Made by a program: the position numbers and the translations under genes | The notes under the pieces: model-generated | What the model was told of the DNA's origin: nothing | The model's database searches: none | Seen by the model: only the letters and a program-made list of their open reading frames with translations | IMG/VR virus record: IMGVR_UViG_2531839180_000007 | DNA: 40,019 bases | Direction: 5' to 3' (one strand) | Source of the DNA: a virus | Lineage: Duplodnaviria > Heunggongvirae > Uroviricota > Caudoviricetes | In this document: positions 25,503-36,841 of the stretch, piece by piece | Position numbering within the stretch: the stretch's first letter is position 1 | Layout: every line of letters starts with the position of its first letter

Positions 25503-26255
25503 CTATCGTGTCACTTTTTGCAACTGTAACTCTGCGAATGCTTCTTCCTGCCAGCACTTTGTTACCAGTTTATCAATGACGTCTGCATATCCTTTGTACC
25601 ACTGATAATCCGTCAGGTCTGGTACCAGCTTCTGGACATGAAGCCGCGCCAGTGTGGTTGGTAAACGGCTAAACCGGTTTCCATTGCAACGCCCACAAAT
25701 CTTATAAACAGGCGTGCCATGAAGCCGGGTTCTTTTTTCATCCAGGACAATACCTTTACCCTTACACCCTCTGCACGCGGTGCTGACTTCTCCCTTACCA
25801 TGGCAATGCTGACATAGTTCCTTCACCCACTCTTCCTTGATAACAGATTCCCCGCTTCTGGAGTGTTTCACCACTTCGCGCAATACATTATGAAATCCAG
25901 TACCAGCACAATGCTCACAGCGAGCCTTACTTGCCGCAGACCTGGAATAATCAGCAAAGGCAAAATTCACAAGGTAAGGGATGATCTGTAACCGGGTTTC
26001 TTCACTCAATTTGTTCAATGTCGGGTTATCCAGTGCCATCGCGTAATTGAGCAGACCTTCAATCGCAAACTGAGGATCCTGAACACCAACTTTTGCCAGG
26101 AATAAGGCAAACCCAAGCGGTGCTTTCGACTGCACCATCCCCTGCGCAGCCATCACATCCGTAATCGTTAAACCACCTGAGCCTGTCGCCGGTGCGTCAT
26201 CGCTCAATTTTGGAGATTTTGGGGAGTAATATTTTGGTAAGGCTTCAAGGTTCAT
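25503..26255 (-). CDS. Late-gene antiterminator Q (Zn-binding, lambdoid Q family)
   Basis: About 250 aa with Cys-rich motifs (CEHCAGTG, CQHCHGKG, CRGCKGKG, CGRCNG); ggaga RBS before the ATG at 26255; positioned upstream of the lysis module. Confidence 0.7.
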   Translation of the reverse strand: MNLEALPKYYSPKSPKLSDDAPATGSGGLTITDVMAAQGMVQSKAPLGFALFLAKVGVQDPQFAIEGLLNYAMALDNPTLNKLSEETRLQIIPYLVNFAFADYSRSAASKARCEHCAGTGFHNVLREVVKHSRSGESVIKEEWVKELCQHCHGKGEVSTACRGCKGKGIVLDEKRTRLHGTPVYKICGRCNGNRFSRLPTTLARLHVQKLVPDLTDYQWYKGYADVIDKLVTKCWQEEAFAELQLQKVTR

Positions 26256-26268
26256 GCTCGTTCTCCAC

Positions 26269-27264
26269 TTACGCCAGCACGCCAATTGCCAGCGCACGAT
26301 CGATAAAACGAAATATCAGCTCAAGCTGGGAGCCATACTTCTCTTCAAATGCCACGGTATCCGCATGCAGCTCGTCGTGATGCTTTCTGCACAAAGGCAA
26401 CACAAAGAGGTCATGCGCTTTTGTACCCATTCCGCCCTGACCGTGACCTGTCAGGTGGTGGGGATCATCAGCAGGTTTTCCACAACATGCGCACGGCTGC
26501 GTCTTAACCCATCGCGTGTACTTTTCATTAACCCAGCGGCGACGTTTGGGGCGTAACATAAAAGACTCCGGCGACTCCGGATCCACTTTCAGCGCCAGCA
26601 CCTTTTTCGCTTTATCCTGGATGATGCTGGTGGCAGGAACCGAAGGCACAAGGTCACTTTCCCGGGTAACAGACGGCACAACAGGCTTCGGTAATCTCAG
26701 TGCCTTACGGGCTGCACTTTCCGGTAAGGCATCCGCCAGGTCATTACGAATCAGCCACCAGCACAGTTCCGGCATTGTCACAACGTGACTGTCATCAAAA
26801 CCGAGATCCCGACGCACAACAGACAACACCCAGCGGGCACAGTTATCCGTTGCCATTGATTCCAGCCGTTCCGTGAACTGATCGCGCAGCTGGTTATCGC
26901 AGTGCCAGCACAGACGGATTGCACCCGGCGCGTGTCGCATTGTGGTCATGTTCTCGCTGTGCCAGTCGGAATGAGGCCACTGACAGCCCTTTTCACGAAG
27001 TAACCAGCTTTCAAGACATTCCACGCCACCAGCACGACGGATCACTGCCTCATTGCGGAACACGGCCCGAACGGCAGGATCATCCGCCAGCGGTTGTGAT
27101 GCCGCCGGAACGGCACCACTGGCGAAAGATGAATAACGTTCCGGCTCAGGCTCCAGCAGGACACGCCCCTGCATAAACAGGGGCATCAGCTCTGAACCTG
27201 GCCTGAACAATACGATCCCCATACGCGGGGCAATTTCAGGGGTCAGTAGTGCTCTCACGGTCAC
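26269..27264 (-). CDS. DUF968-family phage protein (nin-region, HNH-like C-terminal Cys/His motif)
   Basis: 331 aa; C-terminal ..CACCGKPADDPHHL..CRKHHDELH.. motif. Confidence 0.6.
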   Translation of the reverse strand: MTVRALLTPEIAPRMGIVLFRPGSELMPLFMQGRVLLEPEPERYSSFASGAVPAASQPLADDPAVRAVFRNEAVIRRAGGVECLESWLLREKGCQWPHSDWHSENMTTMRHAPGAIRLCWHCDNQLRDQFTERLESMATDNCARWVLSVVRRDLGFDDSHVVTMPELCWWLIRNDLADALPESAARKALRLPKPVVPSVTRESDLVPSVPATSIIQDKAKKVLALKVDPESPESFMLRPKRRRWVNEKYTRWVKTQPCACCGKPADDPHHLTGHGQGGMGTKAHDLFVLPLCRKHHDELHADTVAFEEKYGSQLELIFRFIDRALAIGVLA

Positions 27265-29295: not shown

Positions 29296-30233
29296 CCCCT
29301 GAATCCTGCCGGGATCTGGCTGTAGTCCACATTGTCGTAACTGGCTTTGAAGTACGGGTCTTCGCGTTTTTCTGTGTACGTGCTGACGGACGGCGATAAG
29401 CGCAGGGAAAGTTCATCCCATTTTTCCCGCAGCTTCGACGGGCTGAGCACGTTACGGCACCAGAACGGGTCGCGGCTGACACGGTTGTACATCTCGCAGA
29501 TTTGTTTGTGGGTACGACCGTCCTGTACACACATCAGGCGAATTTCATTTGCCCAGGCTGTCCAGTTCGGTTCTTTCGGACGTACCGCCTCGCCGTCACA
29601 TTCGGCGGCCTGCTCGTACAGGGCGATGATTTTTTTCCAGAGCCACTGTGCGCAGGTCAAATCATCCTGCGTTCCCCACTGGCGCTTTTTAGGGCTGAAT
29701 ACAACCGCATCAGGATGGCGAGTTAAAAAATTCTGTTCAGCCGTCTGCGTGTCCGGTTGCGAAGCGTCCGGACGAGAAGGTTTTTTATCTGACGGATCAT
29801 GTTTTGATTTTACTGACGGATCCCCGCCAGATTCTGACGGGTGAAAACCCGCTTTTTTGCCAGATTTCGACGCATCAAATTTTGACGGGTCAGATTTTGA
29901 TGCGTCAGATTTTGACGGGTCAGAATCTGACAGTTGAGAAAATGCCGCTGCCTGAAGCTTCGCAACGTTAAGCTGATAAACATTCGACGCATTGCGGTTA
30001 CCCTGGCGACGCGCCTTACGCGTTAACCAGCCTTCTGCTTCCAGTCGTGCGATAGCCGTTCTGACGGTACTCATCCCCGCGCCAATCTGGCGGGCAATGG
30101 TTTCAATTGATGGCCAGCACACACCTTCGTCATTACTGAAATCAGCTAGGCGGGCCATAATTGCCACGCTGGATAACTTCATGCCTGACGCAGCGCAACC
30201 ATCCCATACATAGCCGGTTAATTTAGTGCTCAT
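29292..30233 (-). CDS. Replication initiator (lambda O-like organiser) with an internal iteron-encoded linker
   Basis: 313 aa; N-terminal HTH-like region; central SDPSKSDASKSDPSKFDASKSG repeats encoded by DNA iterons; position after the cro/cII-equivalent genes. Confidence 0.65.
   Translation of the reverse strand: MSTKLTGYVWDGCAASGMKLSSVAIMARLADFSNDEGVCWPSIETIARQIGAGMSTVRTAIARLEAEGWLTRKARRQGNRNASNVYQLNVAKLQAAAFSQLSDSDPSKSDASKSDPSKFDASKSGKKAGFHPSESGGDPSVKSKHDPSDKKPSRPDASQPDTQTAEQNFLTRHPDAVVFSPKKRQWGTQDDLTCAQWLWKKIIALYEQAAECDGEAVRPKEPNWTAWANEIRLMCVQDGRTHKQICEMYNRVSRDPFWCRNVLSPSKLREKWDELSLRLSPSVSTYTEKREDPYFKASYDNVDYSQIPAGFRG
29785..29935. repeat. Putative replication origin iterons (about 15-bp TTTTGACGGGTCAGA-type repeats, six to seven copies)
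   Basis: Tandem imperfect repeats at 29866..29924 (TTTCGACGCATCAAA, TTTTGACGGGTCAGA, TTTTGATGCGTCAGA, TTTTGACGGGTCAGA) with further degenerate copies upstream, inside the O-like gene as in ori-lambda. Confidence 0.6.
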
Positions 30234-30581: not shown

Positions 30582-31129
30582 GCGTTAGTTTCTCCACAGA
30601 CACAAAACGCCACGGCGCCCGGAGCTGCACACTCGCGGGCGTCACTCTTTTCTGGAGCGCAAAAGATTTTGTAGACCAGTGCTGCATGCTCCTGCAGCTT
30701 CGAAATTGACATGTACAGCTCGTCGTTAATTGCTGCCTGCTCGTGTGGTTCCACCACCCCGTCTTCAATTGCTGAACGAATCTGTTTTGAATAACTGCCG
30801 ATCTGTTCAATAACCTCCAACAGGCGCTGGTTGATATCGGCGTTCTCTACTTCCTCAATTTCAGGAAGTGATACAAACACCCCACCAGCAGACTGTGCGA
30901 CAGCATCCGCAATGTGGTGATTGCCAGCAGCACGCTGTAAAACCATTGCCCATCCCAACGGGAAAATCTGATCGCCATCTGCACGAAGGCGGTTGAATAA
31001 AGCGTTCTCTGTTACATCCAGCCAGTCAGCAGCTTCAGCGTAACCCCCTGGCAATGCCGCGATAGTTTTTCTGACAGCTTTCACGTACCACTCAGGTTGT
31101 TTTTCCACTTTCCAATGATGCTTACCCAC
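30578..31129 (-). CDS. Putative CII-like / YdaT-like early regulator
   Basis: 183 aa immediately downstream of the cro-like gene, the position of cII or ydaT in lambdoid and Rac-type phages. Family assignment is tentative. Confidence 0.35.
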
Positions 31130-31382
31130 GGCTTACCTCCTGTTCCTGTGGTTTAAACCCATTCTGGTTTTGGCTAGATTGAAAACGTGCCGGATAAAGA
31201 ATCTGCATTTCGCTGACTTCACCCTTAAAAAAATTGGCTAAACGTTCTGCAAGTTCGATAGATGGAATCTGCTCCAGCCTCTCAATACGACTCAACGTCG
31301 CTGGATTGACTTGAACACCCGCAGCAACATGCTGCAAAGTGAAACCATGCGCCTTACGCACATTTCGTAATGGTGATTGCAT
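31122..31382 (-). CDS. cro: Cro-like HTH (XRE-family) repressor
   Basis: 86 aa; HTH ..FTLQHVAAGVQVNPATLSRIE..; divergent from the CI-like gene. Confidence 0.7.
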   Translation of the reverse strand: MQSPLRNVRKAHGFTLQHVAAGVQVNPATLSRIERLEQIPSIELAERLANFFKGEVSEMQILYPARFQSSQNQNGFKPQEQEVSRG

Positions 31383-31396
31383 ATACCCTCCAAATA

Positions 31397-31460
31397 TTGC
31401 GCGTTATGCATGTTATTTCACGCAATTATTTTGCGCAAGTTGATTTGCTTATCACGCAAT
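31397..31460. promoter_or_regulatory. oR-like operator region with divergent promoters between cro and cI
   Basis: Three 15-bp TTGC-N7-GCAA-type sites: TTGCGCGTTATGCAT (31397..31411), TGTTATTTCACGCAA (31412..31426) and TTGCTTATCACGCAA (31446..31460). Confidence 0.45.
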
Positions 31461-31479: not shown

Positions 31480-32172
31480 ATGAACATAGGAAACCGAGTC
31501 AGACAACTTCGCCAAGCGAAGAACATGAAAATCGCCGATCTCGCTGAAGCAATAGGAGTAGATGCGGCGAACATCTCGCGCTTAGAAACGGGTAAGCAAA
31601 AACAATTTACCGAACAAACACTGAGTAATATTGCCAAGAGCTTAGGTGTTGATATTGCTGATCTCTTTACCTCTGCCCTCAAAAGTAATACTGTATATAA
31701 AAACAGTAATAATGAGGATGTTGCGCAGGTGAAGGATGTGTTCCGTATTGAAATGCTGGATATCAGTGCCAGTGCGGGAAATGGCCTTATCCAGGGCGGT
31801 GATGTCATTGATGTGATTCATGCCATCGAATACAGAACTGATAATGCTGTATCAATGTTCGGCGGACGACCAGCCAATCACATCAAAGTTATCAACGTTC
31901 GTGGGGACAGTATGTGTCCAACCATTGAGCCAGGAGATCTCATCTTCGTTGATGTCAGCATCAATCAGTTTGATGGTGATGGTATATATGTCTTTGGTTT
32001 TGATGACAAAATATACGTTAAAAGACTTCAAATGATTCCTGACAAACTGCTGGTGATTTCTGATAACCAGATTTACCGTGAATGGGGAATTACTAGCGAA
32101 AACGAACACCGATTTATGGTCTTTGGAAAGGTCTTAATCAGTCAGTCGCAAACCCTTAAGAGACATAATTAA
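31480..32172 (+). CDS. cI: CI-type prophage repressor (HTH plus S24 LexA-like autopeptidase)
   Basis: 230 aa; N-terminal HTH (..MKIADLAEAIGVDAANISRLETGKQ..); C-terminal S24 domain with an Ala-Gly cleavage site and GDSMCPT Ser and KRL Lys motifs. Confidence 0.85.
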   Translation: MNIGNRVRQLRQAKNMKIADLAEAIGVDAANISRLETGKQKQFTEQTLSNIAKSLGVDIADLFTSALKSNTVYKNSNNEDVAQVKDVFRIEMLDISASAGNGLIQGGDVIDVIHAIEYRTDNAVSMFGGRPANHIKVINVRGDSMCPTIEPGDLIFVDVSINQFDGDGIYVFGFDDKIYVKRLQMIPDKLLVISDNQIYREWGITSENEHRFMVFGKVLISQSQTLKRHN

Positions 32173-32191: not shown

Positions 32192-32215
32192 GGCCACCGA
32201 AAGGTGGCTTTTTAT
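32192..32215 (+). terminator. Intrinsic terminator downstream of cI
   Basis: ggccacc-gaaa-ggtggc hairpin followed by ttttt. Confidence 0.6.
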
Positions 32216-32226
32216 TACCCACCATT

Positions 32227-32277
32227 TTGCATATTTCGCAAATATTACTTGCATATCTCGCAATTTAATTTTATCTT
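32227..32277 (+). promoter_or_regulatory. oL/pL-like operator-promoter region
   Basis: Two operator-type sites, TTGCATATTTCGCAA (32227..32241) and TTGCATATCTCGCAA (32249..32263), of the same family as the oR sites; a candidate -35 TTGCAT and -10 TATCTT overlap the second site. Confidence 0.45.
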
Positions 32278-32443
32278 TTGTTCCAGACCAACTACAGGAT
32301 TACAACAAAATCTGGTTGCAACACGGTGCACGGTGCATGTGTCGTAAGAGGTCAGTAAATGTCAAAAACGAACAGGCAGGACGCCCACGAAGTAGCCGCC
32401 GGTGGCGTATGAATGACCGGATGATTCGTTAGCAACAAAAAAA

Positions 32444-32474
32444 GCGCCCTATAGGACGCTTCGCTCTTTAACAA
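32444..32474 (+). promoter_or_regulatory. nut-like site: small hairpin followed by boxA-like CGCTCTTTAACAA
   Basis: cgctctttaacaa at 32462..32474 matches the boxA consensus as I recall it (lambda nut and rrn antiterminators); an imperfect hairpin gcgccctataggacgc lies just upstream. Confidence 0.45.
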
Positions 32475-32519
32475 TCTGGTCCCCATCAACAAGTAACTGA
32501 TAACTTGAGGAGGTGTGAA

Positions 32520-32726
32520 ATGCACAAAACAGAACCAAAAATCGTCGCGCCTGGCTACACAGATGAGGAAATTTATGAGTGGATGACAAAGAAGCTGGCA
32601 GCTATAAACCAGCTTCGTGAAGTGCTGTCTTATCGACAGGAAACAATAGACTCCTTAAAAAAACTGGATCAGGAAATCACGGTTTTATCACAGGATGTTA
32701 CTTTAGATATTGTGCAGACAAATTAG
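32520..32726 (+). CDS. Hypothetical acidic small protein (68 aa), first gene after the pL/nut-like region
   Basis: ATG at 32520 preceded by a gaggagg RBS at 6-nt spacing; sequence MHKTEPKIVAPGYTDEEIYEWMTKKLAAINQLREVL.. Confidence 0.55.
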   Translation: MHKTEPKIVAPGYTDEEIYEWMTKKLAAINQLREVLSYRQETIDSLKKLDQEITVLSQDVTLDIVQTN

Positions 32727-33132
32727 GATCCCATTCATTTTCGTCAAAATCATCAAAGTGATGAATTTGTGATCTCCAGTCTCGATAATCTAAAAATTTC
32801 TGGGCGGTTACACTTATTTTATCAAGCGTGAGTTCATCCTGAATTGAAAGAAGAAGTTCATCAAATTCCATCTCATTAATCTGTTTTGGCATCCAGTGAT
32901 GCTTCATCAGAATAAGGTGAACCAGAGCCTTTTTCCCATTCAACTGATTATAGGGTGTGCCGAATTTCTTCCGGTGCTCATTTAAGACAAGGTCCAGAAG
33001 AGTAAGTAATGTTGCCCTTGATTCAACTTTGCTTATTTCGACTGATGACACTACCCCACTGATTTCAATGCCCCGATACTTTCCAACATTTTCACAGTGG
33101 GATTTGTACAGCGTATAGATATTACCGGACAT
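32698..33132 (-). CDS. Hypothetical protein (144 aa), convergent with the early-left operon, AT-rich
   Basis: ATG at 33132 with an aagga RBS; 3' end overlaps the 68-aa gene by about 29 nt; two 18-19-bp direct repeats lie in its upstream region. Confidence 0.55.
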   Translation of the reverse strand: MSGNIYTLYKSHCENVGKYRGIEISGVVSSVEISKVESRATLLTLLDLVLNEHRKKFGTPYNQLNGKKALVHLILMKHHWMPKQINEMEFDELLLSIQDELTLDKISVTAQKFLDYRDWRSQIHHFDDFDENEWDPNLSAQYLK

Positions 33133-33416
33133 TTCTTTTCCTTTTGCGTTGTTGGGGATAACCAGATTAACCGAATCCTTGTTGTTGGGGAATAACCAGG
33201 TCCACCTCGCCTGATGTGGCTAAAAGCAGGCACATAACAGCTAAGTATTTTCAACCAGAGAGAATCCTTAGCGTTGTGGTGAATGCGGCTCAGCGCACGC
33301 GGGTTAAGGTTGAGGCTGACAGTCGACCTTCTGTGGATACCCACCCGCCTGGTGTGCAACCTTCGCCAGGCACCGGGAGGCACCCGGCACCACAACTTTA
33401 TGCTGTGTGTAGTCCT

Positions 33417-33464
33417 GGCGGTACCAGTTTGTACCCTTGCTTCCGGCTGGTACCGTCCTTTTTA
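33417..33464 (+). terminator. Terminator-like hairpin with T-run inside the GC-rich non-coding element
   Basis: ggtaccag (33420..33427) pairs with ctggtacc (33447..33454) around a 19-nt loop, followed by cttttta. Confidence 0.4.
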
Positions 33465-33552
33465 CAAAACAGAGAAGAGCATCACCGGACGACGGGCTCA
33501 TAACCCAATCCATCCGGGCGGCAGTCACCGCAGGTGTTCTTCTCTGTTTTGT
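33464..33552 (+). ncRNA. Long stem-loop (15-bp perfect stem, 59-nt loop), candidate structured RNA or cis element
   Basis: acaaaacagagaaga (33464..33478) is the exact reverse complement of tcttctctgttttgt (33538..33552). No plausible ORF covers it. Confidence 0.3.
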
Positions 33553-33600
33553 GGAGAAACTAACCGACCTTGCAGGGTCGATATGATGAGGAGCAGCAAA

Positions 33601-33963
33601 ATGGCTAGCGAACGCAGTACTGATGTGCAGGCATTTATCGGGGAGCTGGACGGCGGCGTATTTGAAACCAAAATCGGCGCAGTTCTCAGTGAAGTCGCTT
33701 CCGGTGTGATGAACACGAAAACCAAAGGTAAGGTCTCACTCAACCTGGAAATCGAACCATTTGATGAAAACCGTGTGAAAATCAAACACAAACTCTCATA
33801 TGTTCGCCCGACTAACCGCGGGAAAATTTCCGAAGAAGACACCACCGAAACGCCGATGTATGTCAATCGCGGTGGTCGCCTGACTATTCTGCAGGAAGAC
33901 CAGGGACAATTACTGACTCTTGCCGGTGAACCTGACGGAAAACTCCGCGCAGCAGGTCATTAA
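33601..33963 (+). CDS. Hypothetical early protein (about 120 aa)
   Basis: ATG at 33601 preceded by a gagga RBS; the upstream part of the longer track ORF is Pro/Arg-rich and non-coding-like. Confidence 0.5.
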   Translation: MASERSTDVQAFIGELDGGVFETKIGAVLSEVASGVMNTKTKGKVSLNLEIEPFDENRVKIKHKLSYVRPTNRGKISEEDTTETPMYVNRGGRLTILQEDQGQLLTLAGEPDGKLRAAGH

Positions 33964-36727: not shown

Positions 36728-36841
36728 TAGAGCCATACAGCCTCACACTCGATGAGGCCTGTTCATTGCTCAATGATATCCAGACCTACCATCGCCGCAT
36801 CAATGCGGCTTTTTCTTGCGTGTAATTGCGGAGACTTTGCG

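Follow-up and report, generated by a model that had tools for sequence, protein, structure and literature searches.

A conserved structured RNA beside a boxA in the early-left leader of a lambdoid prophage with no recognisable N protein

How does transcription from the early-left promoter (pL) of a lambdoid prophage reach its recombination and integration genes when no N-type antiterminator can be recognised? This question is raised by the IMG/VR virus record IMGVR_UViG_2531839180_000007, a stretch of 40,019 nucleotides (nt), hereafter the window, which is a lambdoid prophage of the SfII/SfIV/SfV/ST64B type. Its pL transcript runs for about 1.3 kb with only one open reading frame (ORF), of 68 codons, through a 235-nt leader, an antisense stretch and a 470-nt non-coding region that resembles the RNA STnc100. 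The recombination, xis and int genes come only after this stretch. The leader (32285-32520) appears to be untranslated, and holds a structured RNA of about 65 nt, a hairpin and a boxA of the type found in ribosomal RNA (rrn) operons. We tentatively read it as a composite cis-acting leader that would make pL transcription resistant to termination. The initial annotation of this locus, made from the sequence alone, had placed it in the pL leader, correctly given the cI gene, the terminator and the two operator repeats that precede it. It had also noticed the boxA and the small imperfect hairpin before it, both of which are there, and had missed the main feature, the conserved structured RNA at 32366-32432. 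The leader comprises the following parts:

32366-32432, plus strand: structured RNA element of about 65 nt (covariance model R1, 94.3 bits)
32368-32372 with 32425-32429, plus strand: helix P1, with abundant compensatory change
32375-32377 with 32383-32385, plus strand: small GGC/GCC hairpin with the loop AGGAC (AGGA(C))
32386-32395, plus strand: conserved single-stranded core CACGAAGUAG
32399-32403 with 32416-32420, plus strand: helix P2, with abundant compensatory change, an extra pair 32398-32422 and A32421 bulged
32404-32415, plus strand: conserved 12-nt loop of P2, GGCGUAUGAAUG (consensus GGCRUAYGAA)
32359 (ATG) to 32410-32412 (TGA), plus strand: 17-codon ORF MSKTNRQDAHEVAAGGV, with GAGG 7 nt upstream of the ATG
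32442-32461, both strands: hairpin AAGCGCCCTATAGGACGCTT, with seven Watson-Crick pairs and a C.A mismatch, or five G-C pairs with a bulged A
32462-32474, plus strand: rrn-type boxA CGCTCTTTAACAA, with a conserved extension TCTGG to 32479

BLAST matched positions 32362-32432 at 81-98% in 58 phage records whose flanks were otherwise unrelated. The structure was derived with RNAalifold from an alignment of 89 distinct copies in viral contigs, and the covariation was also visible in a structure-blind MAFFT alignment. We then quantified it in 100 copies, taken from one genome per species. Paired cells made up 96.7% of the total, a share that fell to 75% in shuffles and to 23-39% with the partners slid, and double changes were found in 326 cells where 104 were expected. 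G.U pairs were frequent on the plus strand, which is the sense of pL, and the plus-strand RNA is therefore the folded species. By these measures the element is a real structured RNA, in which a closing helix, a small hairpin and a second helix form a closed three-helix junction. A pseudoknot between GCC 32395-32397 and GGC 32404-32406 is possible and only weakly suggested, i.e., one of its three pairs varies (GC twice, UA twice) and the other two are fixed by the search pattern. R1, run with the filters off, found no second copy elsewhere in the window and none downstream of pR.

The 17-codon ORF that the initial annotation described as a leader ORF, with GAGG upstream, is present in the sequence (32359-32412). 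Its conservation is that of an RNA. An in-frame ATG is absent from 142 of the 181 distinct relatives, and where there is an ATG, it mostly falls within the -10 hexamer of the promoter. The GAGG ribosome-binding site (RBS) is not kept even in the closest subfamily, which has AAGCAG or AAGCGG instead, and the conservation across the ORF takes the form of compensatory base-pair change and is not codon-like. Since neither the ATG, the RBS nor the frame is conserved, and the variation in the stems is compensatory, the ORF is an accidental reading frame over a structured RNA and not a conserved gene. Control of downstream expression through attenuation, with the ORF translated as a leader peptide, could be imagined from the GAGG 7 nt before the ATG and the hairpin downstream, but it is hardly credible given that the ATG, the RBS and the codons all fail to be kept.

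The element belongs to an RNA family that hundreds of enterobacterial phages share. Every annotated BLAST record has it immediately downstream of the repressor gene, where the early-left operon begins; examples that follow a cI gene and a strong promoter are ST64B, SfV, mEp237, ZF40, SPN3UB, SEN34, PHB10 and Aeromonas pAEv1818. Species-representative genomes carry it in at least 112 places, almost all of them in Enterobacterales, where it occurs in more than 100 species (genera include Escherichia, Citrobacter, Klebsiella, Enterobacter, Yersinia, Serratia, Xenorhabdus, Photorhabdus and Erwinia). At least 1,426 of the 5,426 complete genomes of E. coli contain it, and in 998 complete genomes of this species the match spans at least 80% of the element, hairpin and boxA together. 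Among the 25 matches listed for complete E. coli genomes, none had an annotation under the element. E. coli CFSAN061770 matches positions 32363-32480 of the window at 100%. The family also occurs in virulent phages, in the early regions transcribed by the host polymerase. These are T5-like Providencia phages, where it sits in the terminal repeat just after a promoter, and a phage of the Autographiviridae:

L126 1498-1589: element in Providencia phage PSTCR5, right after a promoter
L130 1161-1239: element in Escherichia phage Minorna (Autographiviridae, T7-like)

A sigma70 promoter, defined by a match to at least 9 of the 12 consensus positions, was present within 80 nt upstream of the element in 84 of 175 distinct contexts, against 16 of 175 in shuffles. 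Its -10 hexamer usually ends 8-11 nt before the R1 match in the relatives, and P1 therefore starts at about +6 to +10 of the transcript. This position, and the occurrence of the element only in operons with long untranslated leaders, would suit a role as 5' stabiliser or processing signal, shielding the leader from 5'-end-dependent decay by RppH and RNase E, with boxA as the sole transcription signal. We consider such a role improbable. A 5' hairpin would suffice for it, whereas a near-invariant core of about 25 nt is kept from Aeromonas to Escherichia phages, and in the window the element is not at the 5' end.

The same distribution might indicate that the RNA is itself the product: an early small RNA, decoy or sponge, titrating a host factor (e.g., CsrA, Hfq or a nuclease) or blocking a defence system, and no signal to the polymerase. 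The element is the first thing transcribed from early promoters in temperate and virulent phages, in regions where host-takeover functions abound. Its presence does not depend on the gene that follows, a mosaic boundary lies directly after P1, and it coexists with N and nut sites in some prophages. The AGGA in the hairpin loop and a GGAUGA resemble CsrA sites, and what follows the element in the window (an A-rich tract, then a hairpin and a U-rich tail) is much like the 3' module of a small RNA. Yet most relatives have no conserved 3' end or terminator after P1. There are only two GGA motifs, and CsrA or Hfq motifs leave most of the core unexplained. Furthermore, the element is always in cis at the start of long early-left or early transcripts, never in pR operons and never a free-standing gene. 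We thus regard an RNA acting in trans as unlikely.

A quite improbable alternative is that early-left expression is gated by a riboswitch-like aptamer responding to some host metabolite or signal, which could act on the hairpin 10 nt downstream in a 'tug-of-war'. It would account for the compactness of the three-helix junction, for the conserved nucleotides in its junction and loops, for its place in a 5' leader, and for the hairpin with a U-rich tail that directly follows in the window; intrinsic termination can indeed be inhibited by a stable upstream structure (bioRxiv 10.64898/2026.06.17.733018). It would not account for the lack of a conserved expression platform, since most relatives have neither a terminator nor a sequestered RBS after P1, and no Rfam riboswitch matched the element.

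Of the element, the prophage Rac of E. coli K-12 retains only a decayed copy, located between racR and ydaG (L132 7514-7553, minus strand). Upstream of KilS in the same prophage (L132 6572-6606, minus strand) there is a P1-like stem, ACCACC...GGTGGT, with the interior missing. A second conserved leader module, GCGCAGCAGGT..ACGTTCCGC followed by a covarying hairpin (e.g., CAGCCGG/CGGCG or GCTGGCCGGCG), was seen about 10-60 nt after the element in L004, L127, L129, L131 and many genome loci; this Rac-like subfamily has no boxA.

We then turned to the second half of the leader. The hairpin abuts boxA on its 5' side on the plus strand, i.e., in the boxB-then-boxA order of rRNA operons. The boxA is exact, and it is conserved together with the hairpin in relatives. 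The 12-mer GCTCTTTAACAA, with at most one mismatch, occurs once in the window, where 0.18 occurrences were expected from shuffles. The pattern AAAAAAGCGCC...GGACGCTT[A/C/T]GCTCTTTAA[C/A]AATCTGG follows the element in around one fifth of the contexts, and the hairpin and boxA are kept before at least six different cargo sequences that begin after ATCTGG. Among 100 species-level loci, 11 (including the window) had both the hairpin and boxA, and none of these had a divergent second boxA. Six other loci had a boxA without that hairpin, and all six had a divergent second one. In the T5-like phage PSTCR5, GCTCTTTAAAAAT is found 9 nt after P1 with no hairpin, which is an independent association of the element with a boxA.

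Protection of untranslated RNA by boxA, dependent on Nus factors and independent of N, is known in rRNA operons and CRISPR arrays. The resemblance of the window to the rrn signals is close. In E. coli the rrnH leader reads hairpin-AAC-TGCTCTTTAACAATTT and the 16S-23S spacer reads TTTTGCTCTTTAAAAATCTGGATC. Both orders, hairpin then boxA, are the same as in the window, whose boxA is identical to that of the rrnH leader at 12 of 13 positions (consensus TGCTCTTTAACAA). The window sequence GCTCTTTAACAATCTGG is identical to the spacer sequence TGCTCTTTAAAAATCTGGAT at 16 of 17 positions, and the relatives L144 and L137 are identical to the spacer over about 21 nt. As with the rrn signals, no phage protein would be needed. 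There are also differences. The window has no GU-rich boxC, as boxA is followed by TCTGGTCCCCATCAAC with no UGUGUGGG-like run, the sequence of its hairpin is unrelated to the rrn boxB, and the unit sits in a phage mRNA leader, where the binding of NusB-S10 and SuhB is only proposed, by analogy. CRISPR arrays and the suhB leader share with the window a lone consensus boxA near the start of a long, poorly translated transcript, with a presumed role in protection from Rho, but they are chromosomal and have no accompanying conserved structured RNA.

The hairpin can be read in the other direction. On the minus strand it is followed by T7 (32440-32434), a conserved T-run, and forms a strong intrinsic terminator (32462..32441) for leftward transcripts. 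The hairpin and boxA might then have no function on the pL transcript, the former being a terminator that shields cI and pL from leftward transcription of the cargo, and the latter part of a captured fragment of a host rRNA operon. In many cases the cargo after ATCTGG lies on the opposite strand, antisense terminators are common among the relatives (33 of 87), and the sequence is nearly identical to the rrn spacer. Still, GCTCTTTAA(C/A)AATCTGG is kept across genera and cargoes although the terminator does not need it, and the T5-like phage has a boxA after the element without any hairpin. A purely shielding role seems to us improbable.

Is the site part of a known phage antitermination system? 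PHROGs and Pfam searches found no N-like protein in the window, and the same searches recognised N-like proteins in the control loci L208, L209 and L210. The initial annotation was right on this point, and SfII, SfIV and SfV, which are close relatives of the window phage, have been reported to lack N (PMC3851460). It was also right that the acidic 68-aa product of the first pL gene, assigned to phrog_1744, is not N-like. It had also proposed a search for a second boxA downstream of cro, whose absence would count against its reading. A second boxA was sought on the rightward operon and none was found, with no GCTCTTWA on the minus strand of the window between cro and Q. A lambda-type nutL/nutR system is therefore not supported.

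The comparison with nut sites leads the same way. The window shares with lambda and P22 a boxA in the pL leader close to the consensus CGCTCTT(T)A. However, the boxA of lambda is 5' of boxB, whereas the hairpin of the window is 5' of boxA, and the sequence 3' of the window boxA, after ATCTGG, is variable cargo with no conserved hairpin. A lambda-type nut site was rejected on these grounds, i.e., the wrong order of the hairpin and the lack of N and of nutR. It is very improbable that the site is a nutL used by an unrecognised N-like protein of the prophage. One may invoke for it the boxA with a hairpin nearby in a pL leader, and the true nutL sites that follow members of this RNA family in other prophages. 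Yet the loop of the misplaced hairpin varies, neither the window nor any of the 11 loci of its class has a second boxA or nutR, and the protein searches that recognised N in the controls detected no N-like protein here. As a side observation, the pL leader of lambda (L251 541-600, minus strand), ATCAGCAGGACGCACTGACCACCATGAAGGTGA, which precedes nutL, shares CAGGACGC and ATGAAG..GTGA with the core of the element. R1 has no significant match in lambda, and the shared stretch may be a remnant or due to chance.

The other precedent is put, the RNA of HK022, which the initial annotation had put forward for comparison. We built a second model (R2) from six put RNAs: putL and putR of HK022, and those of HK639, phiEt88, CobraSix and S9-5. 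R2 finds the divergent putR of phiEt88 at 53 bits, but matched neither the pL and pR leaders of the window nor any of 10 loci that bear the element. Conversely, R1 had no match in HK022, HK639, phiEt88, CobraSix, S9-5, lambda or an rrn operon. An alignment of the element with the put RNAs showed no correspondence, and the phages with put and those with the element form disjoint sets. Membership in the put family was rejected on the basis of the models in both directions and the alignment; the element is not a put RNA. The two have features in common. Both are structured RNAs of about 65-70 nt just after pL in lambdoid phages, where the element holds the position of putL, and in both the sequence is strongly conserved, which would be expected if they bind a host machine. 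The put RNAs of HK639 and CobraSix, like the element, are found as a single copy at pL. But they are not similar in sequence or structure: put consists of two side-by-side stem-loops, whereas the element is a closed three-helix junction with a possible pseudoknot. Moreover, put needs neither boxA nor Nus factors, whereas the element is often linked to boxA and sometimes to N and nut. The put RNAs let the polymerase read through terminators in cis with no protein factor, an effect that is lost in rpoC mutants of the zinc-binding domain.

The link to N and nut comes from among the six loci with divergent boxAs, which are prophages of Xenorhabdus, Photorhabdus and Kluyvera. In the Xenorhabdus and Photorhabdus ones examined, the element is followed by boxA, a spacer and boxB (e.g., the nutL GCTCTTTAACAGATAGCGCTGAAAAAGCGC), and then by a gene for an N-like protein with an Arg-rich motif, ARRYERRAAFLAKK, and a match to phrog_271 (E = 3e-6 to 1e-3). 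The other operon carries nutR, and the element lies upstream of nutL only, with no second copy. Canonical nutL/nutR pairs, some with a lambda-like GAAAA loop in boxB, were seen together with N-like genes in L208, L226, L210, L207, L149 and L152, which are Xenorhabdus and Photorhabdus prophages. Since the element coexists with a complete set of N, nutL and nutR, it is not simply a substitute for N.

What would the pL transcript of the window have to overcome? Beyond the leader, its path contains:

32520..32726, plus strand: first pL gene, acidic product of 68 aa, phrog_1744 (function unknown), variable cargo
32698..33132, minus strand: convergent gene of 144 aa inside the pL operon, phrog_5286 (function unknown)
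32616..32591, minus strand: antisense terminator inside the 68-aa gene, positioned to end transcripts from the 144-aa gene
33243-33465, plus strand: STnc100-like non-coding RNA (Rfam, 43.1 bits, below the gathering score of 47)

The end of the STnc100-like region (33405-33465) is homologous to the 3' end of the small RNA KilS of the K-12 prophage Rac, and is weakly DicF-like. It contains a 13-bp hairpin (33417-33457) followed by CCUUUUU, i.e., an intrinsic terminator in the path of pL that extends to 33464 (dG -28.6, z -3.5). A strong terminator on the sense strand was present within 800 nt in 22 of 87 relatives, against 3 of 87 in shuffles, with a strict criterion that also missed the KilS-type terminator of the window itself. 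The pR operon is a run of abutting or overlapping genes without boxA, and such tight packing fits a requirement for antitermination at pL only. Other observations were made in this region. Sub-threshold matches to STnc100 also occur in the pL operons of SfV and ST64B. An inverted repeat of 25 nt (33464-33488/33528-33552, plus strand) with 84% complementarity and a 39-nt loop lies just upstream of the gene at 33601. The terminator 32616..32591 and that formed by the leader hairpin (32462..32441) are two minus-strand terminators downstream of the 144-aa gene.

We favour a composite leader, tentatively, because the RNA is at the start of early transcripts, independent of the downstream gene, conserved as if for a host partner, and recurrently joined to boxA. 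The boxA would load NusB-S10, with NusA, NusG and SuhB, onto the elongating polymerase, as in rRNA operons, and make it resistant to Rho over the 1.3 kb; the binding of NusB-NusE to boxA is established (PMC2800207). The RNA 5' of it would bind a conserved host component (the polymerase, a Nus factor or Rho) and add processivity. The KilS-type terminator at 33417-33464 would then no longer keep the polymerase from the recombination, xis and int genes. The hairpin at 32442-32461 may double as an insulator that ends leftward transcripts from the convergent 144-aa gene. We infer these binding partners, like the antitermination activity, from the sequence, position, conservation and covariation observed above and from the lack of N and nutR.

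Several observations weigh against a composite antitermination leader. The boxA is absent near the element in 72 of the 100 species-level loci, and the hairpin is explained at least as well as a terminator of the opposite strand. The enrichment in downstream terminators is modest, and concerns only about one fourth of the relatives. Most relatives have the element at around +10, whereas about 85 nt separate it from the presumed start of transcription in the window. The Xenorhabdus and Photorhabdus loci examined are true N-type prophages, and given this coexistence with N and nut the element may do something unrelated to termination. The RNA itself is not exempt: the folding energy of the single sequence is unremarkable (z -0.11), and single-sequence folding did not recover the structure supported by covariation. 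Finally, the invariance of the core is partly by design, as the scans that built the collection fixed part of it, although the core does vary a little in the members obtained by BLAST (PSTCR5, Minorna and pAEv1818).

A mechanism based on RNA and independent of phage proteins is nevertheless plausible for the window phage, and boxA-dependent and RNA-based antitermination are already known kinds of system. A broader proposal, which we hold to be possible though doubtful, is that the 65-nt RNA represents a second system beside put, a new class of nascent-RNA effector with no relation to put and a far wider distribution, in temperate and virulent enterobacterial phages. Such RNAs would bind the elongation machinery (RNA polymerase, a Nus factor or Rho) on emerging from early promoters and, together with an rrn-type boxA, give antitermination without a phage protein in N-less lambdoid phages.

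The rest of the prophage is in keeping with its lambdoid character. The main features of the immunity region and of the right end are:

31382..31122, minus strand: cro-like gene
31480-32172, plus strand: gene of the cI-type repressor, directly upstream of the operators and pL
32192-32209, plus strand: terminator of the cI gene
32227-32241 and 32249-32263: two copies, TTGCATATTTCGCAA and TTGCATATCTCGCAA, of the left operator (OL) repeat TTGCATATYTCGCAA
32249..32277, plus strand: probable pL promoter, -35 TTGCAT, 17-nt spacer, -10 TATCTT, overlapped by the operator repeats
36752-37060: xis, at the right end of the prophage
37038-38108: int, at the right end of the prophage

The OL repeats are related to TTGCTTATCACGCAA at 31445, in the intergenic region between cI and cro, and ST64B has the same type of operator and the same layout. 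The promoter was called by eye, being too weak for detection by the consensus scan, and predicts a start near 32284. PHROGs and Pfam also detected a CII-like protein and a Q-like late antiterminator (26297..25506) among the small early proteins. Iteron-like repeats spaced by 15 nt, CAGATTTTGACGGGT and variants, occur at 29789-29940 inside the O-like replication gene, and are probably the phage origin. An exact 15-mer, TGTGGAGAAACTAAC, is found at 33550-33564 (plus strand) in the pL operon and at 30598-30584 (minus strand) in the pR operon, just before a start codon each time; chance alone would give about 0.03 such matches in the 5 kb concerned. Perhaps the two operons share a ribosome-binding or mosaic-junction sequence. 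We rejected the 15-mer as the mark of a paired element, as it appears not to belong to a larger repeat. To the right of the prophage the host flank encodes what its translation suggests is a ybhC-like gene (38243-39526), and we take this neighbourhood to be the region of the lambda attachment site. The flank also contains a REP/naRNA4 element (39595-39665, minus strand, 71.9 bits).

Neither the RNA family nor its combination with an rrn-type boxA in the early leaders of phages appears to have been described. Rfam 15 gave no match over 32363-32439, either at the gathering threshold or at E ≤ 10, and none in six relatives at E ≤ 0.001; searches of the searchable literature by sequence and by topic found no description of the family. 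It belongs in the databases of RNA families, so that annotators no longer take it for a small ORF or for empty intergenic DNA. Early-left expression has been unexplained in N-less lambdoid phages (ST64B, SfII/SfIV/SfV, Rac-like and others), and the question can now be tested. Should the RNA act on the transcription complex, only put of HK022 would precede it as a phage RNA of that kind, and the new family, which includes members in virulent T5-like and T7-like phages, would be much more widely distributed. If it is instead a decoy or an anti-host RNA, it would be equally new.

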